A DNA stretch of 64,000 nucleotides from Candidatus Shapirobacteria bacterium (GCA_041661765.1 JBAZTV010000001.1:135755-199754), one strand, 5' to 3'; counted from the stretch's first letter, positions 1,081-64,000 are shown. Notes: generated from the sequence alone by a model not told the origin. Translations and numbers: made by a program.

Positions 1081-2394
1081 TCAGTCAGTTTTTAAATAAC
1101 TTCCACCATCTTTAGTAATGATCCAAATCTTTTTATTTTCTGGATATTTATCTATTATTTCGTTTTTTTCAAACAAAACAGAACCAATATAAAATACTGG
1201 AGTTTTATTAGGTAAATAAACATAAACAGGAATATCAGGTCGTTGTTTCTTTACATAATATTTAACTTCCAAAAAATTAAGTTCTGATTCAGGAATAATT
1301 ACATCATCATCACTAATTTTAGAAAGGACTTGTTGAACCCCGTAATTAATAGCTGGTTTAGTTGTTTTTTTGACTATTTCTTCTGAACCTTGAATTAAAA
1401 AAATAATATAAGAAATGCCTATGGCAAAAATAAAATATGATAAATATTTATTTAATTTAGATAATTTAAATAAAGAATAAATAATCCAAATAATAAATAT
1501 AGGTAAAATTGGCATTAAATATCTTTCGTGAAATATTGGTATCCAAAAAGCAGAAATTAAATAGACAATTAAAAATGGAATCAAAAAAAGAAAAATTAAA
1601 ACGGATTCATTTTTAATATCTATTTCTTTATCTTTTTGAGAAATATATTTATTAAACCAATAAAATATTCCCAAAATAACTAAAACAACCACTAAATTAT
1701 AGATCATTCCCTTTGAGGCATAATCAGTCGACCCTTGAAAATAAGTTCTAAATGTTTCTAAAAATATAGATGAATTTTTTGGTTCAATCCAAAAACCACC
1801 AGCAACTTTAGTCCATTGATTCCAAAGAAATAAAAACCAAATCCCAAATGCAATAAAAGGTAACGTAAATAAAGAAATAGCAGATTTAATACTCTTAATA
1901 AGAGAACTTCTATTTTTATAAATCCAAAAAATAACAAAAGCTAATAAAAAGAAAATTCCAAAATTATGTGTCAATAGGGAAAGCGCTAAAAATATAGAAG
2001 AAACAAAATTTTTCTTTTTTAAGAAGAAATAAGTAGCAGTGACTATTAGAAAAGCAAAAAATGAATAACATCTAGCTTCAAAGGCATATTCTAATAAGAA
2101 TGGATTTAATAAAACTGCTAATGATCCAACTATGGACAATTTCCAATTTTTAATTAAATGTTTAAGCATGAAAAATGAAGATATTACCAATAAAATATGA
2201 AAACCAAGAGATAAAGTTCTTACTATATATTCAGAATCACCAAATAATTTTATCCAGAAATGAAGCAAAAAATAATATAGAGGTGGACTTGTATCTTTAA
2301 TTGTTAAAAGCAAAATGTCTTTTAAACTTTTAGCAGAAAGCAGGACACTAAAAGCCTCATCCCTCCAAAAACTTTGATGTAAAATCGACAACAT
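1081..2394 (-). CDS. GT-C glycosyltransferase, ArnT/PMT_2-like (GT39/GT83) integral membrane protein
   Basis: 437 aa, ~12 TM; N-terminal WRDEAFSV...SPPLYYFLLHFW motif (DE + PPLYY) typical of ArnT/PMT_2 family. Confidence 0.65.
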   Translation of the reverse strand: MLSILHQSFWRDEAFSVLLSAKSLKDILLLTIKDTSPPLYYFLLHFWIKLFGDSEYIVRTLSLGFHILLVISSFFMLKHLIKNWKLSIVGSLAVLLNPFLLEYAFEARCYSFFAFLIVTATYFFLKKKNFVSSIFLALSLLTHNFGIFFLLAFVIFWIYKNRSSLIKSIKSAISLFTLPFIAFGIWFLFLWNQWTKVAGGFWIEPKNSSIFLETFRTYFQGSTDYASKGMIYNLVVVLVILGIFYWFNKYISQKDKEIDIKNESVLIFLFLIPFLIVYLISAFWIPIFHERYLMPILPIFIIWIIYSLFKLSKLNKYLSYFIFAIGISYIIFLIQGSEEIVKKTTKPAINYGVQQVLSKISDDDVIIPESELNFLEVKYYVKKQRPDIPVYVYLPNKTPVFYIGSVLFEKNEIIDKYPENKKIWIITKDGGSYLKTD

Positions 2395-2528
2395 TGGTTT
2401 ATGTTACCACAATTAATTCATTCTAAAAATTAACCATTACAGGCTGTAAAAACGAGAGCGGAGCATTTGAATATGGAATTAATCTATCCCTACAACACTA
2501 AAAACCACTTTATGTTGTAATATTAGGT

Positions 2529-2996
2529 CTAAATTACTTTTTTAACAACCCTATTTGTTAAATCCATTTGCATCCGGCCACTTCCGTTTTCTACTTCCTT
2601 AAAACCCAACCTTTTATAAAAACCAACAGCATCATCAACCGAATCTAATTCAATTTTTTTTATTCCGCGTTTTTGCGCAAGATCTATAGCCGCTTCGACA
2701 ACAGATTTACCAATACCTTTTCCACGATATTTTTTAACAGTTTCAACGACATTTAAGTGTGCACTTTGAATATTTCCATCTGAATCAATGTCGAAAGAAG
2801 TTAATAACGCAGAACCTACTCTTTTATTAAAAAATCCTTTTGTTGCTATTACTTGAGCTTCATAACCATTATTTTCTGACATGTTTTCGACAATATTAAT
2901 ATTTAGTACTTTTTTCGATCCCTGATCTAATCCCAGTTTTTCCAAATTTAAACTCTTATCAATTGAACTCGGATAACCTATTTCACAATTTTCCAT
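2529..2996 (-). CDS. GNAT family N-acetyltransferase
   Basis: 155 aa; RGKGIGKSVVEAAIDLAQKRG...FYKRLGF acetyl-CoA binding motif. Confidence 0.75.
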   Translation of the reverse strand: MENCEIGYPSSIDKSLNLEKLGLDQGSKKVLNINIVENMSENNGYEAQVIATKGFFNKRVGSALLTSFDIDSDGNIQSAHLNVVETVKKYRGKGIGKSVVEAAIDLAQKRGIKKIELDSVDDAVGFYKRLGFKEVENGSGRMQMDLTNRVVKKVI

Positions 2997-3414
2997 GAAA
3001 ATATTATAACAACCTTATTCTAAAATAATTTACATATCAATACTATGAAATCTGAACGAAGCTTATGGTTTTAGTATTAATATATCTTTATTATTCCAAA
3101 TCATTGCTGTCCTTTTTGTAATCTTTTGTAGCTAAATGAGAAAATAAGACACTTTTAAAAAAGGGTTTCTTAAAATTATTTATATTATTTAGACCAACTT
3201 AAGTATTTAAATTTCGGCTTTTTTTCAAAAAAATAGGGTTTTTGTTGTAAAAAATGTCAAATGTGATAAACTATAGGCTGTTTTCGTACTTTAACAAATA
3301 ATTGTTGTTTTAGTTTGTGGCTGATGGCTTAGTGAGTACAAATTTTGTGCTTAGTAAGCCATTAGTCATAAAAGACTTTTTAATGGTAATTTTTTTGAAA
3401 AGAGGTTTATTAAA

Positions 3415-4539
3415 ATGAACGAAACCCTGAAAACCAAACTTGTCGAACTCGGACTAAATGACGATCAAATCTCAAAACTCGAATCCGAAGGTGCAAAAAC
3501 CGAAGCCAATATGATCGGTCTTTCACCAGAAGAAATCAGGACTATGTGTGGGTGCGGGTTTATTTTGGCCAAAGAAATCGCCAAAGCCTTCATTCCGACA
3601 CCACCCGAAAAAGGATCCGAATCAATCGCAGTTTTATCAGCCGGGCAGCCTTCAATGGATGTTTTACCTCAAGTACCTGACGATGTTTCTTTCCTGAACA
3701 TGCTTAAAGTTGGTGGTGAACTTAAGGTTGGTGAAACTGAAGTTATCGCTGCCATCAGAGCATCTCTGGCAGACAAAAGCGGGCTTTACGAACTTCCAAA
3801 AATTTTAGCTAACCTTATGGAAAAATTCGCCGAAGAACAGGAAGTTCCATGCAGTAACGACTTTTACTCTTTACAGAAACTTCTAATAAGAAGAAACTAC
3901 GCCGAAATTTTTTCTGCTCTCGAAATCGACAGTGCTAGTGTTACTCAGCCCAAAAAAGATGCACTACTCAAAAAACTTCGGATCAATCTTTGGCCGGCGC
4001 TTTTAGGTTTTCATCAGCAAATCATAGGGTGGTTCTCAACTTATCAACAAACAGCTGCTAATCCGGCGGCAATGATGGGTATGTTTTCTATGCTTGCATC
4101 CGGCAATGGTAGTGCGGCTTCCAGTCTGATTCAGGCTCCTGACACCAACACCTTGCGTGATGCAGCTGAAAGCGTTATTGATCAAATCAATCGCGTTTTT
4201 GCCGGCACCGGTATTGTTATTTCTAGAGCTTTGGCTCTCGATGCTAACAATATTAAAACCGTGCTCGAAAATCCGTCATTGCCGGGACAGATTGGTGCTA
4301 GTAATCATGATCAGATGATTAAAATGCTTAGTGTTAACGTTTCAGCTGATTATGTCCGTCTTGAACGAAATATCACTCGTTACGCCTTGGCCATTATGGA
4401 GTTTCCGAAAGTGACCGCCGGACAATCAGAACTGAGTTATCTTACCGCAATGTTCCAACTTGGAAATGCCATTCCTTGGGACAAACTCGACTCGAAGGAG
4501 GTCGTAGCCGGTACAGGCTCTACCTTTCGAACCCAATGA
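3415..4539 (+). CDS. Hypothetical protein, cassette gene A (374 aa), no recognisable domain
   Basis: Long ORF with start ATG preceded by purine-rich stretch; visibly higher G+C than surroundings; first gene of + strand cassette 3415-8685. Confidence 0.5.
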   Translation: MNETLKTKLVELGLNDDQISKLESEGAKTEANMIGLSPEEIRTMCGCGFILAKEIAKAFIPTPPEKGSESIAVLSAGQPSMDVLPQVPDDVSFLNMLKVGGELKVGETEVIAAIRASLADKSGLYELPKILANLMEKFAEEQEVPCSNDFYSLQKLLIRRNYAEIFSALEIDSASVTQPKKDALLKKLRINLWPALLGFHQQIIGWFSTYQQTAANPAAMMGMFSMLASGNGSAASSLIQAPDTNTLRDAAESVIDQINRVFAGTGIVISRALALDANNIKTVLENPSLPGQIGASNHDQMIKMLSVNVSADYVRLERNITRYALAIMEFPKVTAGQSELSYLTAMFQLGNAIPWDKLDSKEVVAGTGSTFRTQ

Positions 4540-4600
4540 GTTCATCAAAAAATACTCTGAGATTGTCAACGGCAAAGACCATGCTGCCATCGCCGATTGG

Positions 4601-4897
4601 TTGATTAACAATGCCAAAAGCATAGACAAAACTATTTTCGATTCTAATTATTGGGATTTTTTGGAAGTTCTCGATGTTTTAACACTTCGTGTTTTTTCAC
4701 CTTCTGGAGTATTCATTTCTTTAAACAAAGAAAAATATACCTCAATTATCAACAATTCTCAACTACTCGCACTTAGCGAATGTCTTTTTAAAAATGATCG
4801 CGATTTCATTTCCAATCTTCCTTTAGAATTAAAACCATATTTAGCCCAATTAGAAGTCCTCATGGATTTGGCCTACAAAACTAAGATCAGGAGGTAG
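4601..4897 (+). CDS. Hypothetical small protein, cassette gene B (98 aa; TTG start in track, frame open upstream to 4508)
   Basis: ORF track; reading frame is open from 4508, overlapping end of gene A in +1 frame; possible alternative start or frameshift. Confidence 0.35.
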   Translation: MINNAKSIDKTIFDSNYWDFLEVLDVLTLRVFSPSGVFISLNKEKYTSIINNSQLLALSECLFKNDRDFISNLPLELKPYLAQLEVLMDLAYKTKIRR

Positions 4898-4961
4898 TAA
4901 ACAACAATTATTTCTGGGGTAGGACCTTTTCTAATATTTTTTAGAAAAAAAACTGCCCCAA

Positions 4962-5012
4962 TCCCTCTATCGATGTGTATCGATACCGATGAGTCCAAAA
5001 GGACGAAAGGAA
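4962..5012 (+). ncRNA. Hammerhead ribozyme-like motif, type III topology, variant core CCGAUGA (U4->C) and short stem III
   Basis: UCCCUC|UAUCGA-UGUGUA-UCGAUA-CCGAUGA-GUCC-AAAA-GGAC-GAAA-GGA: stem I hairpin, stem II GUCC/GGAC with AAAA loop, GAAA, 3-bp stem III; paralogous to the perfect copy at 7222-7273 with compensatory changes in stem I. Confidence 0.55.
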
Positions 5013-5066
5013 AAGTACTTTAAAAATAAGGAATGTTTCGTCATTTTTTGAAAGGAGTGATAATAA

Positions 5067-6023
5067 TTGGATCTTATTAAACTAATTTTAGCTCTCGCGC
5101 CACTAATACCTCGGGAAAATACTTCATCTTCATTAATCAAAATGACAGAGTTTGATGGGTTAAACGGAAAATACATTATTTTTGGTTTAAAATCTGCCAG
5201 CATTTCTAGTGGTGCTCCGATTGCCAAAACCAGTAACAGTAAATTGTACGTTACCCAGCTTCCTTCCGGTCAATTTGGATTTATGAAAATTGCTCTTGAA
5301 ACCTACGAAAATGACTCTATTGTCAGAGAATCCAATATTCTCAGGGAATTACAGTTGATTGCTCGTGAGATCGATAATGATTGTCAAAATAAAGGTTTAG
5401 GGAAACCAAACTATGGCGCCTTTTTCCCAAAAGTTTTAGAGACTTTTGATGCTGGTCCTAAAAAGGCTATGTTTTTAGGATTTGATGAAAACATCGAATC
5501 TTATCAACAATTTTCTCCCTTATCTTCATTAACAGGCGATCAGCGAATCGATCTTCAAACTGGTCATTGGATTTTAGGCAAGCTTCTTAAAATTCTTGCC
5601 TTTATTCACAGTTATGGTTATTCTCTTAAGTTAATTAATTCCAGTAATATTCTCCTCGAAACCAATCTTCACGGCGTTTTTATCCTCGATTTTTCTGCTG
5701 CTCAAAAAAATATTGATTCATTAGTTATGTCCCAAGAAATTTCAAATGCTGCCAAAATAGTTTGGTATGCAACTGGTGGAACCAACTCTGAATCTTCACC
5801 TCATGATCAAGACATTATGTCTCTCGAACATCACCATATCTATTTATCCTTTCTTTCCAAATTAATTGAAGGGACAAATTATACTACTGGTACAGTTATT
5901 GATAAATTATATGAACTTTCAGATGGCATTTGGCCAAAAGTTCAAAAGGAGGATGGTACCCCAGGTTTAAAACGACAATTTCATAAATTTTGCACCTATC
6001 CAAAAATAATCATTAAGGAGTGA
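5067..6023 (+). CDS. Eukaryote-like protein kinase fold protein, probable pseudokinase (HRD Asp replaced), cassette gene C
   Basis: 318 aa; TTG start 10 nt after AGGAG; motifs FMKIAL (beta3 Lys), RESNILRELQ (alphaC Glu), HSYGYSLKLINSSNILL (catalytic loop with Asn retained, Asp->Leu), ILDFSAA (DFG-like). Confidence 0.6.
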   Translation: MDLIKLILALAPLIPRENTSSSLIKMTEFDGLNGKYIIFGLKSASISSGAPIAKTSNSKLYVTQLPSGQFGFMKIALETYENDSIVRESNILRELQLIAREIDNDCQNKGLGKPNYGAFFPKVLETFDAGPKKAMFLGFDENIESYQQFSPLSSLTGDQRIDLQTGHWILGKLLKILAFIHSYGYSLKLINSSNILLETNLHGVFILDFSAAQKNIDSLVMSQEISNAAKIVWYATGGTNSESSPHDQDIMSLEHHHIYLSFLSKLIEGTNYTTGTVIDKLYELSDGIWPKVQKEDGTPGLKRQFHKFCTYPKIIIKE

Positions 6024-6030
6024 TGTTCAA

Positions 6031-7158
6031 ATGGTGGAAAAAAGACACACAGAAACTTTCAGTAGCAGTCACTATGAAAAAACCGTCAGTGAAATGCGCA
6101 CCCGCGGAGAGAAAGTCCACGATGCTGGCCAAAAAGTTTATCGCGAAACTGGCAAACTCGACCCCATGGTCGATATCAAAGGCAAAACTCGCGAATCCCG
6201 AAATGCTTTTATCGACAACGGTAATAACACCTGTCTTTTAACCAAAGGTATAAAAATGCCAGTCGTTTCTTGCGGTGATGGCACTGGTTCGATGGGTGAA
6301 AATGTTGGTAAAGTCTTTTTTGGAATGAAAAAACTTTTTGATATGCTTTCTCCGTTTCAATTGAGATATCAAATTGATCTCTCTGTCGCCGTAGTTCAAG
6401 ATGTTCAGGACAAACATCCTGTTTTTCAAATGGCTCAGTTCGAATCCAGCAATCTTGCTGCCGAGCATGTTACTAAATTAATCCCCGACAAAGATGGTGG
6501 TGATTCAGATGAAGACTATGATCTCGGTCTCTGCTATATCAATGACAGAGTAAATATTGATATTAATCAATACTGTTTGAAAGGCTATTTGTTTATTATT
6601 GCTGATGCCTGTGGTCGCGGTCGCGTTCTTGCTTCTGATGTCAAAAACCATCTAGGATATGAGATTCAATCAAGATCCATTTACACAAAAAAAATCTGTC
6701 AAGAACTTCTCAAAAAATGGCATGTCTTTTTTATCCAGATCAATAGTAGTTATCCAACTTCTTCTTGGTGGTCCGACCTACTTGGTGACAATCGAGTTAT
6801 TTTTGGTTGTGACGCTGATTATCTAGCCGAACTTCAGGCTGGATTAATGTATATCACCGAAACAGAAGAACCTCTTGAAACTAGTTTTATTGCCTTTCTT
6901 CAGGCTTCTGGTAACAATAAAATTTCCGATTACGATGCCAAAAAAATTTGGCAGATAATTCAGCCGGCCAAACCGCTTTTTGGCGCTCAGGCCAAACTCG
7001 ACGTCTTTAATAATATCCCCAAACCTGGTGATATTTTTAGTCACTATCGCAACCCCTGGCCCATTGGTCACGCCCGCGAAAGCGAAAATCCTACTACTAA
7101 TAGCGTCGTTACTACTCCATCTATCGATTCAAACGAAGTTGATTGGACTAAATTCTAA
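6031..7158 (+). CDS. von Willebrand factor A (vWA) domain protein with MIDAS motif, cassette gene D
   Basis: 375 aa; VVSCGDGTGSMGENVGKVFF = DxSGSM MIDAS start of vWA fold; later FIIADACG (ITDG-like). Confidence 0.65.
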   Translation: MVEKRHTETFSSSHYEKTVSEMRTRGEKVHDAGQKVYRETGKLDPMVDIKGKTRESRNAFIDNGNNTCLLTKGIKMPVVSCGDGTGSMGENVGKVFFGMKKLFDMLSPFQLRYQIDLSVAVVQDVQDKHPVFQMAQFESSNLAAEHVTKLIPDKDGGDSDEDYDLGLCYINDRVNIDINQYCLKGYLFIIADACGRGRVLASDVKNHLGYEIQSRSIYTKKICQELLKKWHVFFIQINSSYPTSSWWSDLLGDNRVIFGCDADYLAELQAGLMYITETEEPLETSFIAFLQASGNNKISDYDAKKIWQIIQPAKPLFGAQAKLDVFNNIPKPGDIFSHYRNPWPIGHARESENPTTNSVVTTPSIDSNEVDWTKF

Positions 7159-7221
7159 CGCAAACATTCTTTACAAAAGTCAGGACAGGTTGCTTTTGGC
7201 AACAAAACAATCTGTCCTACA

Positions 7222-7273
7222 TCCCTCTTCTGATGTGTATCAGAACTGATGAGTCCAAAAGGACGAAAGGGAA
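7222..7273 (+). ncRNA. Type III hammerhead ribozyme (canonical core)
   Basis: UCCCUC|UUCUGA-UGUGUA-UCAGAA-CUGAUGA-GUCC-AAAA-GGAC-GAAA-GGGA: closed stem I hairpin, CUGAUGA, stem II 4 bp + AAAA loop, GAAA, stem III UCCCU/AGGGA, predicted cleavage after C7227. Confidence 0.8.
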
Positions 7274-7275
7274 AT

Positions 7276-8685
7276 ATGAAAGAAATAATTTCAATTTTTG
7301 GCACTGGTATTGGTGAAGAAGTCAAGGGTGTCACCACTCAAAAATGTGTTCAAGAAACCAATGCTCACACCGTCATTCGATCTGGCGGTTTTCAATCGGG
7401 TCACCATATCGTCGATAATAACGGTGAAACTTTTTCTTTCAGTCATTTCAGTTGTGGTACTTTTGATGGGGCTCAAACCTATTTAAAAAATATGGTTTTT
7501 AATCCAGTCGATTTATTTGAAGAAGCAATCATGCTCGAAGAAAAAGGAATTGAAAATATTTTTGACAAAATAATTATTGATGAAAACTGTATTAGCACCA
7601 CTCCTTATCATCAAGCCATCAGTCGTCTTCGCGAAGTTTTACTCGGTGACAATAAAAAGGGAACTGTTGGCAAAGGTGTTGGTGATGCTATAAAAGATTC
7701 TTCAGACCCAAATCTAACTCTTCGGGCTGCTGATTTTTTTCAAAATTTTGACTTTCTTCAAAACAAAATTAAAAATATTCAGCAACATAAACTTTATCAA
7801 TCCCAAAAACTTTTAGAAAATAAAAATCCATCTGAAATCTCTGATCGTGCCCTTTTTGAATTTTCCATCATTAAGGATAAAAATCTTATCAAGAAAACCG
7901 TTATTGCTTGTCAATCTTTATCAAAATTAGTTCGTATCACTGACCAAATTTTTTTTCAAGAACTTTTAAATAAAAATGGCACTATTGTTTGCGAACCATC
8001 ACACGGTGCACTTCTCCATCCAGATTTTGGATTTGTTCCCCATGTCACCCAAGTCGATCCTACTGGTCAAGACCTTTTAGAATCCATCAAAAATCAAAAC
8101 TATGACGGTAAGATAGTTCGTCTTGGTGTCAGTCGTTGTTATATTACTCGTCATGGTGCCGGCCCTCTTGTTTCTTTCAATCAAGAAATGACCGATTCCA
8201 TAATTGAAAGTTCGGATAATAACGGTGCCAATGAATGGCTCGGCCCTTTTAGAAATGGAAATTTTGATTTAGTTGCCATGAAGTATGCACTCAATTTTAG
8301 CGGATCAATCAGTGGTCTTGGAATTAGTTATTTAGATATTTTAAATCAAAACCAAAATTGGCAAGTTTGCGAAAGTTACCAATATTTAGGAGATAAAAAC
8401 AACCTCCAAGATTTTTTTGAAATTGAAGACAATAAAATTATCGCCATAAAAATTTACAAAGGTGTAAATAAATCAGATCAAATAAATCATCAAGTTCAAC
8501 TCACCAACTTATTAAAAAATTGTCACCCAATTCTCACCACTCTCAAATCTACGGATAATAAAAATCTCGAAGAAATTTTTATAAATTATGTTGAACAAAA
8601 ATTAGAAATTCCTGTTGTACTTGTTGGTTACGGCCCTAAATCTTCCGATCGAAAATTCAGAATAAATTTATCTGATCTCGGGTAA
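7276..8685 (+). CDS. Divergent adenylosuccinate synthetase family protein (PurA/PurZ-like), cassette gene E
   Basis: Track ORF 7249..8685, start re-set to ATG 7276 (AAGGGA 7 nt upstream; 7249 start lies inside ribozyme). Colinear similarity to PurA: GTGIGEEVKG~GxQWGDEGKGK, HTVIRSGGFQSGHHIV~VVRYQGGHNAGHTLV, NGETFSFSHFSCG~NGEKxVLHLIPSG, KKGTVGKGVGDA~IGTTGRGIGPA, GALLHPDFGFVPHVT~GAQGTLLDIDHGTYPYVT, ITRHGAGP~STRVGAGP; several catalytic residues substituted. Confidence 0.65.
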   Translation: MKEIISIFGTGIGEEVKGVTTQKCVQETNAHTVIRSGGFQSGHHIVDNNGETFSFSHFSCGTFDGAQTYLKNMVFNPVDLFEEAIMLEEKGIENIFDKIIIDENCISTTPYHQAISRLREVLLGDNKKGTVGKGVGDAIKDSSDPNLTLRAADFFQNFDFLQNKIKNIQQHKLYQSQKLLENKNPSEISDRALFEFSIIKDKNLIKKTVIACQSLSKLVRITDQIFFQELLNKNGTIVCEPSHGALLHPDFGFVPHVTQVDPTGQDLLESIKNQNYDGKIVRLGVSRCYITRHGAGPLVSFNQEMTDSIIESSDNNGANEWLGPFRNGNFDLVAMKYALNFSGSISGLGISYLDILNQNQNWQVCESYQYLGDKNNLQDFFEIEDNKIIAIKIYKGVNKSDQINHQVQLTNLLKNCHPILTTLKSTDNKNLEEIFINYVEQKLEIPVVLVGYGPKSSDRKFRINLSDLG

Positions 8686-10377
8686 AAAAACTCGGCTTAA
8701 AAAAAGTTGTGTCGCTATCCGTCTAAACTCTGGTTCCCAAAAATCACTTTGCCAATCGATCAAATCTGAATGGACTGTGCCTTTTGATTTTTTAGATGGA
8801 TAAAAATAACGATAACCTTTATGCATAAATCTGTTTTGGATTATATCCATCTCCAATTTAAGTAAGAAAACAGTTATAATCGTTTTCTTTTGTTTCCCAA
8901 ATCTTTCCAAATTAAGATATTTTTTTGTTATATCTTGGCTAATCTTTTTAAATTCATTATTGGAGCTAATCCAAATTCCATTCCAAAAAATATGTATTTC
9001 TTTTACTCCAATAATTTTTCCATTTTGTTCTGGATTTTTAAATCCAAATTTTTCATCTTTTTTATCAATCCAATATTCCAAAATTTTTTCCACAGTTTTT
9101 AATGCTGGAATTTTTTGATGAAGTCGTTCTAAAATTTCTTCTCTTCTTTCAAAAGTAGTTTCTGGTCTAAAAAATATTGCCGCGTCTATATCTGCTTCCA
9201 CACCAGCATATCCTTTAACTCTTGATCCAAAAACTAAAAATGTTGGATAAATATATTTCATTAATTCACCATCTTCTTTAATTTTTATTACTGCTTCTCT
9301 AAAAATTTCAAAATCTTTTTTTACCATTTCTTTAGTTTTTATTGCCATCAGTTGATTAAATTCGGGCAATTTTGTTTTAAATTTTTCCAAAACTTCATCA
9401 GAAATAATACCTAAATTTTTCCAATGGCTTAATCCAGATTTAATATCATTTTCAAAAATATTTTTATTTTTAATCCAACAATCATAAACTAAAGGCAAAT
9501 ATTTTTCTATTAAATTAATCTTTTCTCCAGCCTTAAAAATACCCACAATTTCAGCAATCTCATTAATTTCACTAAATTCAATTTCACCATCAATTATTTT
9601 TTGACAAATTACTTCTGATTTTTTTTCAGTTTCTTTTTCTTTTTTAACTTGGTTTTCCCATCTAATTCTCGCTCGGCTAATAATAAAACTTTTATCAATT
9701 TTTGGCTTTTGTAAATCAAATAATTTATCAACCAATTTTTCATCAAAATCAAAATTTACTATTTTTTTATCAGCCGCAACAATCAATCCTTCAGTCAAAT
9801 TTATTTTCAAATTTTCGTCATCACAAACATTAACTATTTTTTTTATTTCCTCGTAATCAATTATCTTTTTTTCTAAAATATCTGACACCAAATGAGCCAC
9901 TTTTCTAACTGGAACTGGTTCTCCCAACCCTGCTTCTAAAATATCACCATCAACAAAATCAGCTCGCCAATCTTCCTCAAACAATAATCTAATCCATGAT
10001 TTTTTATAAACTTCAGAAAATTTTTTCCTTGATTTTCTTAAAATTTCACCATTAATTTCTTTTTCCATATTAGGCAAGAGTTGTGAAGGAAGATAAAGGA
10101 TAATTCGGCTATTATTTTCAACATCTTCTTCAATAAATTTTCCTAATCCATCATAAATATCAATTAAATCTTCATTACCAACCAAATCTTTTTCATACGC
10201 TTCATCAAAATCCATATTTACGTCAGGAATTTTATTAAAAATATTTTTTAACTTTTTATACAAATCCCTTCGATCTTTTCCTTCTTCACTTAAAAAAATA
10301 TCTACACCAATCGGGCCAGATATCTCAATTTCATTAAAATTTAGTCTATCTTTTATCTCTACTGTGGACACTACCAA
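8668..10377 (-). CDS. Nucleotidyltransferase (Pol-beta superfamily) domain protein, 569 aa
   Basis: GSRVKGYAGVEADIDAAIFF = GS..G...D.D NTase motif in C-terminal half; remainder unknown. Confidence 0.55.
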   Translation of the reverse strand: MVVSTVEIKDRLNFNEIEISGPIGVDIFLSEEGKDRRDLYKKLKNIFNKIPDVNMDFDEAYEKDLVGNEDLIDIYDGLGKFIEEDVENNSRIILYLPSQLLPNMEKEINGEILRKSRKKFSEVYKKSWIRLLFEEDWRADFVDGDILEAGLGEPVPVRKVAHLVSDILEKKIIDYEEIKKIVNVCDDENLKINLTEGLIVAADKKIVNFDFDEKLVDKLFDLQKPKIDKSFIISRARIRWENQVKKEKETEKKSEVICQKIIDGEIEFSEINEIAEIVGIFKAGEKINLIEKYLPLVYDCWIKNKNIFENDIKSGLSHWKNLGIISDEVLEKFKTKLPEFNQLMAIKTKEMVKKDFEIFREAVIKIKEDGELMKYIYPTFLVFGSRVKGYAGVEADIDAAIFFRPETTFERREEILERLHQKIPALKTVEKILEYWIDKKDEKFGFKNPEQNGKIIGVKEIHIFWNGIWISSNNEFKKISQDITKKYLNLERFGKQKKTIITVFLLKLEMDIIQNRFMHKGYRYFYPSKKSKGTVHSDLIDWQSDFWEPEFRRIATQLFLSRVFLPEIR

Positions 10378-10842
10378 TTATATCCTATAATTTATAAAAA
10401 ATCAATATTAACCTTAAATACGGGAATTATTTTAAGTAATGAAACAAAATATGAAGAGCATTATGATTGCGATGAGCCTTATATCGCTGAAGAATATCTA
10501 ATTAAACAGCTGGTCGCTCATATAGATGAAATTAAATTAGACGAAGTTTACCTAGCCTCATATTTAAAAGAAGATATTGATAGATTTCATGGATTAAGAT
10601 CAAGAGTTCTTCGTCAAGAATTTATAAGTGGAAACCTAAGAGAAATAGAATATGACGCTTTTAATAAGGTCGACAAAGATATGGTCAAAGAATATTTACT
10701 TTATGTTTTACAAACTGGAACAGCAGAGGAAAGATTAAAAGTTATGTCGGCAATTAAGACAAAGTTTATACTGCACAATAAACAGTTGACTATAAAGTAA
10801 AATAAAATACTATAATTACTGTATTATTTTGTATAAATTTAA

Positions 10843-11979
10843 ATGGACAATTGGAGCGCAAGTAAAACAGATAATCCTCAAGGGGCTGATTTTAGGGAAG
10901 TTTTTATAGATGGAAAGGTAAGTGAATTAGAGTTCACTATTAAACCACAAGGTGATTATTGGAGGGCTGGATTTAAACTATTTGACCCTAATGAAGATAT
11001 TTTTCCATTAAGAAGTAATAATAGTTTTTTATTTCATTTAGGGTCTACTCCCCCTAATAAGGAATACGGACTTACTGCTTATTTAAACGGTGATCACATT
11101 AAGGAATTAAACAAAACAAAGAAATACCCGAACAATAAACTAATTAATATCAAACTCGAAATTAACCACAATAATTTTTTAAAGATATATATTAATGGGT
11201 CACTTGAATTTAAACCGAACTGGCATTTTAAAAATCCAAATGTTAGAGAAAAAATTATTCTTATTGCGTGGGGAGATGAATTTAATTATCATGTTTATTT
11301 CAAAAATATCGCCATGGCAAACTGGAAAGACATTAAGAAAAAAGAACAAACAGGGAATGAAAGCGACAAGACACCTGCCACTCTTAAGGTGACTGGTAAT
11401 AAAAACGTTTTTTTAAACAGTCAAGTAAACGGTTCGGCTTTTATCAGCGGTAAAGAAAATGCATTTATAAAAACTAATATTAACTCAACAAAGATAAATT
11501 TAATAAAAAAGACTAAATGGTATAAGAATCCAAAGATAATAGTACCAGCAATCGTTGGAATTTTTACCGCTCCATGGTGGCCTTCAATTTTTTCAGGACC
11601 AAGCGAATATCCCAATAGTAGTATTGGACAAACTAATACACCAACAATTGTTGAAAAACTTATACCACTATCTATGCAAATCCCACAAAAAATAGCTGAC
11701 TCTAATAATGTAATTTTTGTGGATGAAAGTAAATCTTTTACTGATTCATCTTCTGGTTTAATTGTTGGTATTAATCGAGTTCTTTCGCATACCGATTCAG
11801 ATTTAACTATAACTTTTCCAGGAAAACCTTCAGAAGAGATGAAAGATATAAAAAGCGGTAAGAGTTTTCTTTATAAAGGAAAAGATAATTTAGAATATGC
11901 ATTAATTATTGTGGAAATTGCATCTGACAGTGTAGGTATAAAGATTAATTTAAACTCAGAACAGAACCAATTTAGGTAG
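10843..11979 (+). CDS. Hypothetical protein (378 aa), possible ConA-like/LamG jelly-roll N-terminal domain
   Basis: ORF track; beta-rich N-term GDYWRAGFKLF...FLFHLGS...IYINGSLEF; weak. Confidence 0.4.
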   Translation: MDNWSASKTDNPQGADFREVFIDGKVSELEFTIKPQGDYWRAGFKLFDPNEDIFPLRSNNSFLFHLGSTPPNKEYGLTAYLNGDHIKELNKTKKYPNNKLINIKLEINHNNFLKIYINGSLEFKPNWHFKNPNVREKIILIAWGDEFNYHVYFKNIAMANWKDIKKKEQTGNESDKTPATLKVTGNKNVFLNSQVNGSAFISGKENAFIKTNINSTKINLIKKTKWYKNPKIIVPAIVGIFTAPWWPSIFSGPSEYPNSSIGQTNTPTIVEKLIPLSMQIPQKIADSNNVIFVDESKSFTDSSSGLIVGINRVLSHTDSDLTITFPGKPSEEMKDIKSGKSFLYKGKDNLEYALIIVEIASDSVGIKINLNSEQNQFR

Positions 11980-12116
11980 TTAAAACACCTTTTTTGAAAT
12001 TTTTTTAACCATTACAGGCTATTTTAGCGATAAATGTTGAAAATTGAGAATATTTGACAACAGGTTAGGGGCTATTTGATATAACGATAGGGTCGCACAG
12101 AACACCAAACGTTCGG

Positions 12117-12199
12117 CGGAAGGGATGGGAGTCGAACCCACATGCCATTTCTGACGCAGGTTTAGCAAACCTGTGGCTTACCATTCGCCGCACCCTTCC
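12117..12199 (-). tRNA. tRNA-Ser (anticodon GCU), type II with long variable arm
   Basis: Reverse complement folds as GGAAGGG acceptor, anticodon stem CAGGU/ACCUG with loop UUGCUAA, long variable arm, T-arm GGGUUCGACUCCC. Confidence 0.8.
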
Positions 12200-12254
12200 T
12201 GGGGATAGTGTTTTAGTATATCAAATTTTTCCCAAATGCTTTAAAATTAAAACA

Positions 12255-12794
12255 ATGAAGAAAAAAGCAGTAAGTAGGGTTGATAGGGTTATAAAAGACA
12301 CTAATGAAGAGAAAACTTTAATTGAATGGGAAGCGGCCGAGAGGGCATTTAAGAAAAGAGACAAAGATTTTTGGATCACTGTCGTTTCAATTTTAATTTT
12401 ATTTTCAGTTGTTTTATTTTTTATCGAAGAATTTTTTCTAATTGTCGCTCTCGTTTCAGTTTTATTTTTATATTATGTTCTCTCCACTGTTCCTCCCCAA
12501 GTCGTTAAATATAAAATAACCAATAGAGCCGTCCATTTTGGTGATTCAAAATACAGTTGGGATATTTTATTAAGATTTTGGTTCAGAAAAAGTCTCAATA
12601 CTGAGCTTTTAGAATTTGAAACCAATTTAAGAATTCCTCGACAAATTTCTTTAGTCATCAAAGAATCAGATAAAGAAGAAATTAAAAAAATTGTTTTAAA
12701 GAAATTACCTTTAGTTGAATCATCACCAAATTTTGTTGATAAATTAGCCAAATGGTGGAACGATAAAATGCCTTGGGAAAAACGGGAAAAATAG
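12255..12794 (+). CDS. Hypothetical membrane protein (2 TM), 179 aa
   Basis: ORF track; two adjacent hydrophobic helices. Confidence 0.45.
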   Translation: MKKKAVSRVDRVIKDTNEEKTLIEWEAAERAFKKRDKDFWITVVSILILFSVVLFFIEEFFLIVALVSVLFLYYVLSTVPPQVVKYKITNRAVHFGDSKYSWDILLRFWFRKSLNTELLEFETNLRIPRQISLVIKESDKEEIKKIVLKKLPLVESSPNFVDKLAKWWNDKMPWEKREK

Positions 12795-12826
12795 ACTTTA
12801 TTTGGTATAATTCATATGATTTATTC

Positions 12827-12898
12827 GCGCCCATAGTTTAATGGATAGAATGACGGTTTGCGAAACCGTTGATCCAGGTTCGATTCCTGGTAGGCGCA
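12827..12898 (+). tRNA. tRNA with anticodon GCG (Arg by anticodon)
   Basis: GCGCCCA acceptor, anticodon stem ACGGU/ACCGU loop UUGCGAA, T-arm CCAGGUUCGAUUCCUGG; one acceptor mismatch; overlapping track ORF 12841..13023 is spurious. Confidence 0.65.
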
Positions 12899-12905
12899 CC
12901 GAAAT

Positions 12906-12987
12906 GGAGGGTTGGCCGAGTGGTTTATGGCGCACGCCTCGAAAGCGTGTGGGGAAACCCGCAGAGGTTCAAATCCTCTACCCTCCG
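12906..12987 (+). tRNA. tRNA-Ser (anticodon CGA), type II
   Basis: GGAGGGU acceptor, anticodon stem CACGC/GCGUG loop CUCGAAA, long variable arm, T-arm AGAGGUUCAAAUCCUCU, 3' ACCCUCC-G. Confidence 0.75.
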
Positions 12988-13040
12988 CAATCTTTCGCTA
13001 AAGCTTCAGAATTACATGCCTAATCTGATAATATTGTAAT

Positions 13041-59207: not shown

Positions 59208-59393
59208 TGCAAATTTCAATCTTGTGTAATATAATAACCTCACTGCCTGAAACAAGGCAGAATTGTTCTTTAAAATTAAGTTCACAATTTGTTTAGAGCC
59301 AGAAGCTGTTAGTACCAGAAAGATTTTCAAAAAAAATTTTTGATTGATTATTTAAATCAATTGATTTCGAATTTATTCGAAATGTTAGTACTA

Positions 59394-60887
<1,494 letters not shown>

Positions 60888-62650: not shown

Positions 62651-64000
62651 ACTTTGTTTTTGCCAGCATCGATGATGATATCGCCGCCATCACTAAACAA
62701 ATTTCCGATCTAGAAGCTTCAATTGCCCCTCTTCAAAAAGAATCTACTGGTCTTGCTTCTAAACTTACTTCTGCTAAAACCCAAATTACATCCATAAGCA
62801 ATCAGGTCGACAACCTCAGTCAAAAATTAGTCGACAAAGAATCAGATCTTGAAGTCCAAAAACTTTTACTTGCCGAAAGAGTTAAACGTTACTACAAAAA
62901 TAGTAAAAGTTATAATTCCTTTTTAATTTTATTTTCCGCTTCGGACAATAAAAATGGTTCTGTTTTTCAACAATATGCTTGGTATCAGTCAATTATTTCC
63001 CAAGATAAAAATACTATTACTCAATATTCTTCCGATATTACTATCTTAAACGATAATAAAAACAAACTCGAAGCTGAAAAAAATAAATTAGCCAAAGTCA
63101 AAAAAGACCTCGAATCCCGTTCCAGTTTTTTGGCCACTGAAATTAAAAAAGCCGAAACTTATAAAGCCGAACTTTCCGCCAAACAAAAAGACCTTGAAGC
63201 CAAAAAACTAGCCAGTTTAAATTTACCCACCAGTGTTGGTAGTGGTGGTAACATGATGTGTACCGATGATCGAAAAACCGATCCTGGTTTTGGCACTGGT
63301 TTCGCTTTTTTTACCTTTGGTATTCCTCACCATGTCGGTTTAAACCAATATGGTGCTTATGGTCGAGCCAAAGCTGGACAAAACTACAAAGACATTATTA
63401 ATGCCTATTTTAACAACGTTACTTTTGAAAAAAAGCCCAATATTACTCTCAACGTAAAAGGTTACGGTTCCATGCCTCTAGAACAGTATCTTTTAGGTAT
63501 TTATGAAGTCCCTGAATCTTGGCCAATTGAAGCTTTAAAAGCTCAAGTTATTGCTGCTCGTTCTTATGCTTTAGCTTATTCAAATAATGGTGCCAATGAA
63601 ATTTGTACCACCCAAGCTTGTCAGGTTTACAAAGGTGGCAATAAAGGTGGACAATGGGAGCAAGCTGTCAAAGCCACTGAAGGTGAAGTTATAACTCAAA
63701 GTGGTCAAGTAGTCACCGCTTGGTTTGCCTCTACCGCTGGTGGTTATACTTATACCTCTGCCGACGTTGGTTGGAAATCCACCGGTTGGACCAAAAATAC
63801 TCGCGATACTTCCGGTGATGTCAATTCTTTTGAAGATCTTATAAATAAAGCCTATGATAAAGATTCTCCTTGTTTTTATGCCGCCCAAGGCTATCGCAAA
63901 GAATATAATAAATCAGCTTGGTTAAAACCTAGTGAAGTTGCCGACATTGTCAATTCTATTCTTTTATCTCAAAAAGATTCTTCTATTAATAATAATCTTT
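62641..64000 (+). CDS. SpoIID/LytB-domain protein with N-terminal coiled coil (3' end beyond window; start uncertain: GTG 62560, TTG 62596 or GTG 62641)
   Basis: Own translation: ...EVPESWPIEALKAQVIAARSYALAY...ICTTQACQVYKGG typical SpoIID/LytB; frame open from 62557 to window end; not in track because no stop. Confidence 0.75.
   Translation, partial: MGLNFVFASIDDDIAAITKQISDLEASIAPLQKESTGLASKLTSAKTQITSISNQVDNLSQKLVDKESDLEVQKLLLAERVKRYYKNSKSYNSFLILFSASDNKNGSVFQQYAWYQSIISQDKNTITQYSSDITILNDNKNKLEAEKNKLAKVKKDLESRSSFLATEIKKAETYKAELSAKQKDLEAKKLASLNLPTSVGSGGNMMCTDDRKTDPGFGTGFAFFTFGIPHHVGLNQYGAYGRAKAGQNYKDIINAYFNNVTFEKKPNITLNVKGYGSMPLEQYLLGIYEVPESWPIEALKAQVIAARSYALAYSNNGANEICTTQACQVYKGGNKGGQWEQAVKATEGEVITQSGQVVTAWFASTAGGYTYTSADVGWKSTGWTKNTRDTSGDVNSFEDLINKAYDKDSPCFYAAQGYRKEYNKSAWLKPSEVADIVNSILLSQKDSSINNNL

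Follow-up and report, generated by a model that had tools for sequence, protein, structure and literature searches.

What would a bacterium use a gene cluster for that combines a vWA protein, a protein-kinase-like protein and a relative of adenylosuccinate synthetase (PurA)? The question is posed by a cassette of five genes, A to E, at positions 3415–8685 of a 64,000-nucleotide stretch of DNA from a Candidatus Shapirobacteria bacterium (GCA_041661765.1, JBAZTV010000001.1:135755-199754); this whole stretch is called the window below. The open reading frames (ORFs) are laid out as a sequence-only reading of the window had described them, with five co-directional genes preceded by a 418-bp gap (2997–3414), and the window is chromosomal, containing a 16S rRNA gene and five tRNA genes. 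That reading took the cassette for an acquired, GC-rich module, possibly serving defence and including a PurA- or PurZ-like enzyme. Residue comparisons place the product of gene E instead in a clade of its own within the PurA superfamily, and its coupling to gene D extends over phages and Patescibacteria (candidate phyla radiation, CPR).

Residue signature of gene E

Gene E (7276–8685, plus strand) encodes 469 residues from the ATG at 7276, in an ORF that opens at 7249; this ATG is most likely the start codon, because the database copy of the protein (P0001, from a 445-kb 'Candidatus Shapirobacteria' contig) is also 469 residues long. The protein matches the Pfam family PF00709 (Adenylsucc_synt) over residues 16–466 with 161.8 bits (E = 2.9e-47, cut-off 27) and is colinear with E. 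coli PurA, as had been noticed from the sequence; PurA chains in the PDB match at E = 1e-22. It falls well under the PurA equivalog cut-offs, reaching about one-third of the required score (132 bits against 402 for NF002223 and 116 against 396 for TIGR00184), and on the PurZ model NF038379 it scores 27.4 bits against a cut-off of 300. The best match among the PHROG families is PHROG 1211, which lumps PurA- and PurZ-type proteins.

We aligned 28 CPR and 62 viral E sequences that are linked to a D gene (D-linked) with E. coli PurA, whose residue numbering is used here, and with PurZ of phage phiVC8. Lys16 and His41 are kept in the D-linked clade, while the residue equivalent to Asp13 is Glu in the window, Asp or Glu in the CPR sequences and Asp in 61 of the 62 viral ones. 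Thr239, which in PurA binds the 5'-phosphate of IMP, is also kept; in the guanine motif, Asp333 is mostly retained and Lys331 is lost. Asn38 is replaced by Gln, Thr129 by Cys, Val or Ile, and Val273 by His in 89 of 90 sequences; the alignment at R143 is unreliable. Further changes affect the aspartate loop, GATTGRRRR in PurA and N-x-W-x-G-x-x-R in D-linked E, in which Thr300 has given way to Trp, Phe or Tyr and Thr301 to Gln or Leu, Arg303 is deleted in all 90 sequences, and the positions of Arg304 and Arg305 are not basic, the latter holding Phe, Val or Leu. The loss of aspartate-binding residues and the retention of catalytic ones extend to 90 of 90 D-linked sequences. By this signature, the D-linked E proteins are a distinct clade, neither PurA nor PurZ. 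The PurA fold (PDB 1ADE and related entries), with its colinear motifs, and the retained catalytic residues make nucleoside triphosphate (NTP)-dependent activation of a purine 6-oxo group by E likely; E probably retains this activation while not binding free aspartate in the known manner.

PurA and PurZ are, to our knowledge, the only characterised activities of the superfamily, and the discovery of PurZ accounted for Z-DNA genomes. PurZ and PurZ0 of the Z-genome pathway (phages phiVC8 and S-2L) resemble E as phage-borne PurA paralogs with altered substrate use, but PurZ keeps the aspartate site and has Ser13, whereas E has Asp or Glu13 and no aspartate site. A 2026 survey of viral PurA homologs separates PurZ, with Ser at position 13 in 100% of the phage proteins, from canonical PurA, with Asp13, and leaves several hundred viral homologs uncharacterised and in neither clade (PMC12884076). 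Beside E, neither the window cluster nor the related loci have a datZ, mazZ, dutZ or dpoZ gene. The residue at position 13, the PurZ model score and these absent genes all speak against the PurZ-like assignment that E had been given.

Partners of E in phages and Patescibacteria

Gene D (6031–7158, plus strand, 375 residues) lies upstream of E. Its product has a Rossmann-like vWA fold with a complete metal-ion-dependent adhesion site (MIDAS), formed by DGTGS (6277–6291) and Asp192; D83-G-T85-G-S87 and D192 are invariant across 36 sequences of the family, in agreement with the canonical motif recognised earlier. Scans of Pfam, NCBIfam, PHROG and PADLOC give no informative family for D, and sequence searches of the PDB with D and C were uninformative. 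A profile search recovers 1,468 clusters of D homologs at 50% identity (E ≤ 1e-10) among 1.84 billion representatives, most of them of phage-type length (300–340 residues). One homolog (P0218, 581 residues) contains an apparent intein with a LAGLIDADG-like module and a weak Hint match (E = 2.4e-4), located just ahead of a conserved strand terminating in the MIDAS Asp.

D and E are rarely found apart. In IMG/VR loci anchored on D, E is directly downstream in 77 of 80, and in those anchored on E, D is directly upstream in 78 of 80; the two genes are adjacent in 155 of the 160 loci, always co-directional and typically about 18 bp apart. Among CPR genomes, D is linked to E in all 23 loci with enough upstream flank. 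From these linkage statistics it is near-certain that D and E work together, usually joined by C and, in Patescibacteria, with A and a nucleotidyltransferase gene, N, added. The same numbers make it very improbable that E is a plain housekeeping adenylosuccinate synthetase among unrelated neighbours. Such a role would agree with the full-length PF00709 match and with the public records, which label D-linked proteins (P0001, P0056, P0082 and others) 'adenylosuccinate synthetase' or 'synthase', but not with the low equivalog score, the absence of all aspartate-binding residues, the constant vWA partner or the occurrence of the E family in Patescibacteria, which is sporadic rather than universal.

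The phage connection drawn in the sequence-only reading extends to named isolates. In Mycobacterium phage I3 (Bixzunavirus), gp270 ('kinase'), gp271 and gp273 ('PurA-like') match the profiles of C, D and E at 1e-21, 7e-39 and 9e-91, respectively, and about 200 related mycobacteriophages carry a PurA-like gene; in Vibrio phage phiKT1024 and Rhizobium phage RHph_Y65, D lies immediately upstream of E. Neighbours were counted over 62 viral clusters below 60% identity. A C-type gene precedes D–E in 39 of them, often with an N-terminal J-domain, and in 15 its place directly upstream of D is taken by another gene, C2 (for example, L107 7261–7866 and L099 7194–7802). The C2 product, of about 200 residues, has a beta-rich N-terminus, a Met/Gly-rich low-complexity segment and, in most cases, an acidic C-terminal tail for which a role as MIDAS ligand is plausible; it has no Pfam match. 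C2 was tested as a truncated kinase and as a homolog of A, and is neither. Other phage neighbours of D–E are genes for P-loop kinases, HD hydrolases, ribonucleotide reductase and NAD salvage.

Gene C (5067–6023, plus strand, 318 residues) starts with TTG at 5067, from where its homologs align and where a good Shine-Dalgarno sequence is present. The protein has a Hanks-type kinase fold without the catalytic HRD Asp. This position is Leu in the window, as the sequence-only reading had it, and Val, Ile, Leu or another residue, but never Asp, in 16 aligned orthologs; it is Ala in I3 gp270, and a paralog in locus L027 alone keeps HGD. K49, E63, N169 and D183, numbered after a 293-residue form and corresponding to the beta3 Lys, the alphaC Glu, the catalytic-loop Asn and the DFG Asp, are invariant in 15 sequences; C is a probable nucleotide-binding pseudokinase. 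PADLOC 2.0 matches it to weak generic kinase models only (PD-T4-6, E = 2e-4).

Two known types of vWA partnership bear comparison with this arrangement. The TerY-P triads of vWA, Ser/Thr kinase and PP2C genes and the ArnA/ArnB-kinase modules likewise couple a vWA gene to a gene of the Hanks-type kinase fold. Here, however, there is no PP2C or FHA partner, the kinase-fold protein lacks the catalytic Asp, and the constant partner is PurA-like instead of a phosphatase; PP2C is found neither in the window genes nor among the 25 commonest of 147 Pfam families in 143 flanking proteins. In the MoxR AAA+/vWA pairs (RavA-ViaA, CbbQ-CbbO, NorQ-NorD), too, a MIDAS-bearing vWA adaptor is dedicated to a P-loop NTPase, but the partner of D is a PurA-type (SIMIBI-class) enzyme and not an AAA+ ATPase, and neither the window cluster nor the CPR loci contain a MoxR AAA+ gene.

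Among 5.8 billion proteins, E has about 100 homolog clusters at 90% identity, 45–85% identical to E, and those with names come from Shapiro-, Davies-, Woese- and other Patescibacteria. For Patescibacteria, the neighbourhoods compared are those of 26 species-level genomes, together with seven contig look-ups. C, D, E and N occur together wherever the flank suffices (26 genome loci, in Microgenomates and Parcubacteria), in orders that include A-B-C-D-E-N, C-D-E-A-N and D-A-E-N; the variable order argues for selection on co-occurrence. The flanks of the cluster vary by genome and are mostly housekeeping genes, such as those for SecA, YchF, ribosomal proteins, prolyl-tRNA synthetase (ProRS) and other tRNA synthetases. 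Recurrence in bacteria and phages bears out the functional association of kinase-like, vWA and PurA-like genes that had been suspected, and is at odds with a one-off acquisition.

Gene N (8668–10377, minus strand, 569 residues) converges on E, with an 18-bp overlap of the 3' ends (8668–8685). The convergence had been described correctly, but N had been taken to lie outside the cassette; it adjoins E in every genome locus with sufficient flank, convergent or co-directional, and belongs to the module. N is a nucleotidyltransferase of the Pol-beta fold, matching PF18765 with 27.7 bits against 26.9 (E = 3e-6), as do 17 of 20 family members. Its G-S...D-x-D motif (G384, S385, D396, D398) is invariant and is flanked by a large N-terminal domain without known family and a conserved C-terminal helical region. 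The N profile matches HI0073 (MNT) in the PDB at 1e-4, five of the 20 members weakly resemble poly(A)-polymerase palm domains, below significance, and PADLOC gives a weak generic nucleotidyltransferase match (PDC-S09, E = 0.0016). In most Microgenomates-type loci (window, L003, L005, L009, L015, L037) the convergent overlap of E and N measures 12–42 nt, and in L001 and L008 the two genes are co-directional; overlapping convergent transcripts could couple the expression of E and N.

Gene A (3415–4539, plus strand, 374 residues) has no match in Pfam, PHROG, NCBIfam or PADLOC. A profile search of the PDB suggests an N-terminal domain weakly resembling a tandem helix-hairpin-helix, (HhH)2, as in the Rad51 N-terminal domain and the C-terminal domain of the RNA polymerase alpha subunit (E of about 0.5, below significance); a linker and a C-terminal domain without known family follow. 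Of the 26 genome loci, 16 have a homolog of A next to the cluster, where it occupies one of three positions; the family, to which a divergent form, A2, is homologous (hhalign E = 1.6e-39), is confined to Patescibacteria clusters. Gene B (4601–4897, plus strand) encodes a small protein of 98 residues without a family match in Pfam, NCBIfam, PHROG or PADLOC, and its homologs follow A in L005, L018, L020, L036 and L037. The earlier statement that A and B have no recognisable domains thus holds at the level of family matches and is qualified by the weak N-terminal similarity of A. Neither A nor N has a homolog in the phage collection (tblastn) or in any viral locus.

The closest relatives of the window cluster, L036 (E 85% identical), L037 and L005, carry a second, paralogous set of genes immediately upstream of A (L036 304–4490; L037 1272–5637; L005 1–3424). 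This set comprises a uridine-kinase-like P-loop kinase, an apparently active Pkinase, D' (about 495 residues) and E' (about 445 residues, nearer to the phage type). It is absent from the window, where a GNAT gene and the 418-bp gap take its place. Whole triads are duplicated in L005, L027, L036 and L037. Two Patescibacteria homologs of E (P0075 and P0086) are 700 residues long and bear an extra C-terminal domain of about 210 residues with no Pfam match; the possibility that this is a kinase domain was rejected, the only likeness being a local, non-significant one to the catalytic-loop/DFG region of C (hhalign probability 1.4%). In locus L200, where such a fusion lies at 9001–11106, C, D and N are separate genes and A is absent.

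Codon usage and hammerhead elements

The GC content is 37.7% in the cassette and 33.0% in the window as a whole. Among sliding windows of the cassette's length, only 0.8% are at least as GC-rich, and all of these cover the 16S rRNA gene (complete, toward the window end, at 59387–60887); the windowed comparison therefore agrees with the claim of a GC-richer cassette, if not with that of an acquired one. At third codon positions (GC3), A has 0.38, D 0.35, C 0.27, E 0.24 and N 0.17. The remaining long ORFs of the window stay at or below 0.31, save a 102-residue ORF at 63580–63888 (0.50), apart from which A is the window maximum; the GC excess stems from A and D. Orthologous clusters in distant genomes reproduce this pattern: L001 has 0.67 in C and 0.68 in D against 0.20 in E and 0.18 in N, L011 has 0.70 in A and 0.64 in D against 0.36 in E, L012 has 0.67 in D against 0.26 in E, and L029 has 0.71 in both A and D against 0.33 in N. 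Across genomes, A, C and D are rich in GC3 and E and N are at or under the genome background, with an abrupt fall at the D/E junction (7158–7276 in the window; also in L001, L011, L012, L020 and L029), which is where the hammerhead element of the window sits. The step suggests that the two halves of the operon differ in expression or mRNA stability. Because the same A/D-high, E/N-low pattern recurs in distant orthologous clusters, the GC excess is conserved, gene-specific codon usage and not evidence of recent transfer.

On these grounds, it is improbable that the cassette is a prophage remnant or mobile element peculiar to this genome and acquired recently. Besides the GC difference, the phage homologs of C, D and E and the tRNA genes 1.7 kb downstream would fit such an origin, as would the larger cluster of the closest relative, which indicates fluid gene content. 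Apart from the recurring codon usage, it is contradicted by the low-GC gene N, which is conserved with the cluster, by the chromosomal housekeeping contexts of the relatives' clusters and by the region itself, which contains no integrase, terminal repeat or phage structural gene. The tRNA genes form a cluster of three (Ser-GCT, Arg-GCG, Ser-CGA) at 12115–12988, downstream of N. A recent insertion beside them was considered and found unsupported: there is no integrase, a repeat search of the window found no repeat that connects the tRNA genes with the cassette border, and the sole exact repeat pair, a 16-nt direct repeat (2430–2445 and 12005–12020), does not clearly mark an island end.

Two 54-nt elements in the cassette, 85% identical to each other, resemble hammerhead ribozymes of type III. 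On the Rfam model RF00008 (Hammerhead_3), the candidate between D and E (7221–7274, plus strand) scores 35.2 bits (E = 1.7e-4) and the type III-like element between B and C (4961–5014, plus strand) 22.7 bits (E = 0.61), the gathering score being 48.5 bits; the D/E candidate falls short of it because its stems II and III are no longer than 4 and 5 bp, respectively. With RF00008 this candidate shares the invariant cores CUGAUGAG and CGAAA, three stems in type III order and covariation in stems I and III; a C17 that follows a U16.1:A15.1 pair is predicted to be cleavable, as in the family, with the site at 7227|7228. The minimum free energy (MFE) fold of the D/E candidate is a three-way junction. 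It ends 1 nt ahead of the start codon of E, whose Shine-Dalgarno-like AAGGGA overlaps with the 3' strand of stem III; this fixed site inside a bacterial operon, abutting a start codon, sets it apart from RF00008. The B/C element has CCGAUGA in place of CUGAUGA in its core (U4C) and may be weakened.

In an alignment of 12 copies, both cores are invariant save for the U4C change of the window B/C element, 97.9% of the cells are paired and in six pairs both partners change; the covariation score was reached by none of 500 shuffles and collapsed in slid controls. A cluster-specific covariance model built from hammerhead copies (R1) gives the 4961–5014 element 78.9 bits, this copy being part of its training set, and in seven Microgenomates loci on which it was not trained (L003, L008, L009, L010, L011, L015 and L020) detects an element directly upstream of E. 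It finds none elsewhere in the 64-kb window and none in Parcubacteria-type or phage loci. In strict pattern and Rfam searches, relatives have elements at both window positions, with L005, L036 and L037 carrying one at the same B/C position. The hammerhead is a lineage-specific (Microgenomates), position-fixed part of the operon, for which self-cleavage is predicted. What had been described as hammerhead-punctuated mobile DNA comes down to these two elements, both inside the cassette.

The 5' leader of gene A contains a long hairpin of about 57 nt (3314–3372, plus strand), with an MFE of −30 to −36 kcal/mol. Upstream of A, the window shares a conserved 14-nt block, AAGCCATTAGTCAT, and its pairing partner with L005 (hairpin at 3696–3748), L036 (4610–4664) and L037 (5895–5953); the 14-bp lower stem formed by block and partner is nearly invariant, while the upper stem varies with pairing kept. 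A promoter-like conserved block, TTGAC...TGxTAAACT, precedes the hairpin, which may be a regulatory or stabilising RNA element. Promoter and terminator scans scored the real sequence no better than shuffled sequence.

Possible functions of the module

We tentatively favour, for the module as a whole, a role in the conversion or salvage of purine nucleotides with a nucleophile other than aspartate. The retained catalytic residues, the nucleotide-metabolic neighbours, the housekeeping flanks and the dependence of the carriers on host nucleotides all point in this direction. The extended cluster of the closest relatives is headed by the uridine-kinase-like gene, and the commonest neighbour, in 6 of 20 CPR loci, is an NrtR-like Nudix-wHTH gene directly upstream and co-directional (L003 4791–5447; L009 6813–7469; L013 6886–7554; L020 5170–5877; L021 6664–7338; L029 6663–7376). 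NrtR-like neighbours occur in both Microgenomates and Parcubacteria and, beside D–E, at one viral locus, though not in the window; two further loci of the 20 have a stand-alone Nudix gene. The arrangement recalls the NrtR regulons, in which ADP-ribose-responsive repressors govern NAD and nucleotide metabolism, but these neighbours score 113 bits against an equivalog cut-off of 400 and the cluster contains no NAD biosynthesis genes. Patescibacteria have been described as being without nucleotide biosynthesis and as feeding on host RNA (bioRxiv 10.64898/2026.06.21.733656).

In the mechanism that we propose, E would use NTP to activate the 6-oxo group of a purine nucleotide of the IMP or GMP type, since the phosphoryl-transfer apparatus of PurA (P-loop Lys16, Asp/Glu13 and His41) is kept. 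The attacking nucleophile would not be free aspartate, as it is for PurA and PurZ, because the aspartate pocket has been replaced (W/F-Q/L-G, deleted R303, His273); ammonia, another small amine or a group on a partner protein could serve instead. D would dock on E, or on the co-substrate of E, via its metal site, and C, often fused to a J-domain in phages, would bind nucleotide as a non-phosphorylating regulator or scaffold. In the bacterial version, N and A would act on the product or couple it. The hammerhead would split the A/C/D message from the E message, leading to unequal expression. On this model, the module would serve phages and episymbiotic Patescibacteria, both of which replicate on nucleotides obtained from a host.

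Several observations weigh against a role in salvage. A plain salvage enzyme is not obviously in need of a vWA protein, a pseudokinase, a 570-residue nucleotidyltransferase and an HhH protein, and four CPR loci are without C, while several loci with full flank have no detected A homolog. The J-domains of phage C proteins and the acidic-tailed C2 point towards an activity directed at proteins. The GC3 richness that A, C and D show in different genomes suggests that their products are abundant, as would be more typical of structural or stoichiometric components than of regulators of an enzyme. Moreover, we infer the D–E complex and both the substrate and the nucleophile of E from sequence. The partner set, C2 and the high-expression codon usage of A, C and D thus lend weight to two other explanations, a conflict system and the modification of macromolecules.

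A conflict system is unlikely. The phage triad would then act in counter-defence on pools of adenine nucleotides or signals, restoring or altering them, for example once host immunity has deaminated or depleted them, and the Patescibacteria cluster would serve defence or attack on the host, with D and C as sensor and switch and E and N as nucleotide-modifying effectors. The cluster is indeed sporadic in Patescibacteria and shared with phages, C has its weak kinase matches in PADLOC, and defence systems often contain Pol-beta nucleotidyltransferases and kinases; inteins, of which one D homolog (P0218) has an apparent example, are typical of important phage genes. In locus L001, genes of cyclic-oligonucleotide-based antiphage signalling (CBASS) type, SAVED and SMODS/AGS-C, lie at 1143–3918, some 1.8 kb upstream of the cluster. 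At no other locus was a defence system seen as a neighbour, however, most CPR flanks being housekeeping genes rather than defence islands and the commonest neighbour a metabolic regulator of NrtR type. PADLOC 2.0 has no match for A, B, D or E and weak ones only for C and N, and the proteins show no obvious toxic effector, be it a nuclease, TIR, SIR2 or pore-forming domain. The context thus gives little support to the defence module proposed in the sequence-only reading.

The modification of macromolecules, in which E couples an activated purine to protein or nucleic acid or acts on a purine within RNA or DNA, appears quite unlikely. N would add or transfer a nucleotide and A would bind nucleic acid, the outcome being an N6-type adduct or a protein–nucleotide conjugate. 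MIDAS sites of vWA proteins bind protein carboxylates, and E has exchanged its free-aspartate pocket for a conserved motif containing Trp and His; C2, directly upstream of D, has its acidic tail, and phage C proteins have their J-domains. The (HhH)2-like domain of A and the palm-domain likeness of some N members would also fit, as would the polynucleotide-kinase-like genes near D–E in phages, but both similarities are below significance. Against this reading, Thr239, which is kept, fits a mononucleotide substrate, yet N38 and T129 are substituted; no DNA modification of Bixzunavirus is reported in the searchable literature.

Returning to purine-nucleotide chemistry, a more specific proposal seems possible to us, if somewhat doubtful: next to PurA and PurZ, D-linked E may make up a third class of function in the PurA superfamily, combining the conserved 6-phosphoryl-purine chemistry with a non-aspartate nucleophile. 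Its product would be a new purine nucleotide, or a covalent conjugate of a purine nucleotide with a protein or nucleic acid that the vWA partner presents; the pseudokinase, in phages fused to a J-domain, would gate the reaction and, in Microgenomates, the hammerhead would tune expression. In the open-access literature searched, we found no description of the gene combination, of PurA-like phage enzymes of the D-linked type or of CPR hammerheads, in line with the earlier impression of an undescribed association, and the annotations of PADLOC, Pfam, NCBIfam and PHROG contain no system matching the D-linked clade with its vWA partner, pseudokinase, Patescibacteria additions and operon hammerhead. 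The individual folds are known, and E falls in the PurA superfamily, but the module itself is apparently undescribed, and there is a substantial chance of new chemistry in D-linked E.

A hammerhead fixed at a start codon, where a conserved switch in codon usage also falls, makes a clear-cut natural example in which to study how ribozymes process bacterial operons. The function of the module is directly testable, because it occurs in cultivable, tractable phages (the roughly 200 Bixzunavirus mycobacteriophages and the Vibrio and Rhizobium phages). For Patescibacteria, metabolic reconstructions take the label 'adenylosuccinate synthetase' as a marker for purine biosynthesis, and its misapplication to D-linked E can distort conclusions on how these bacteria acquire nucleotides. 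For the PurA superfamily, D-linked E represents, by its residue signature, a third clade in which the catalytic apparatus is kept and the site of the third substrate rebuilt, strictly coupled to a vWA family of about 1,500 clusters (50% identity) for which Pfam has no model. If D-linked E does use a nucleophile other than aspartate, a new enzymatic activity would be present in Patescibacteria and in phage lineages numbering well over a thousand.

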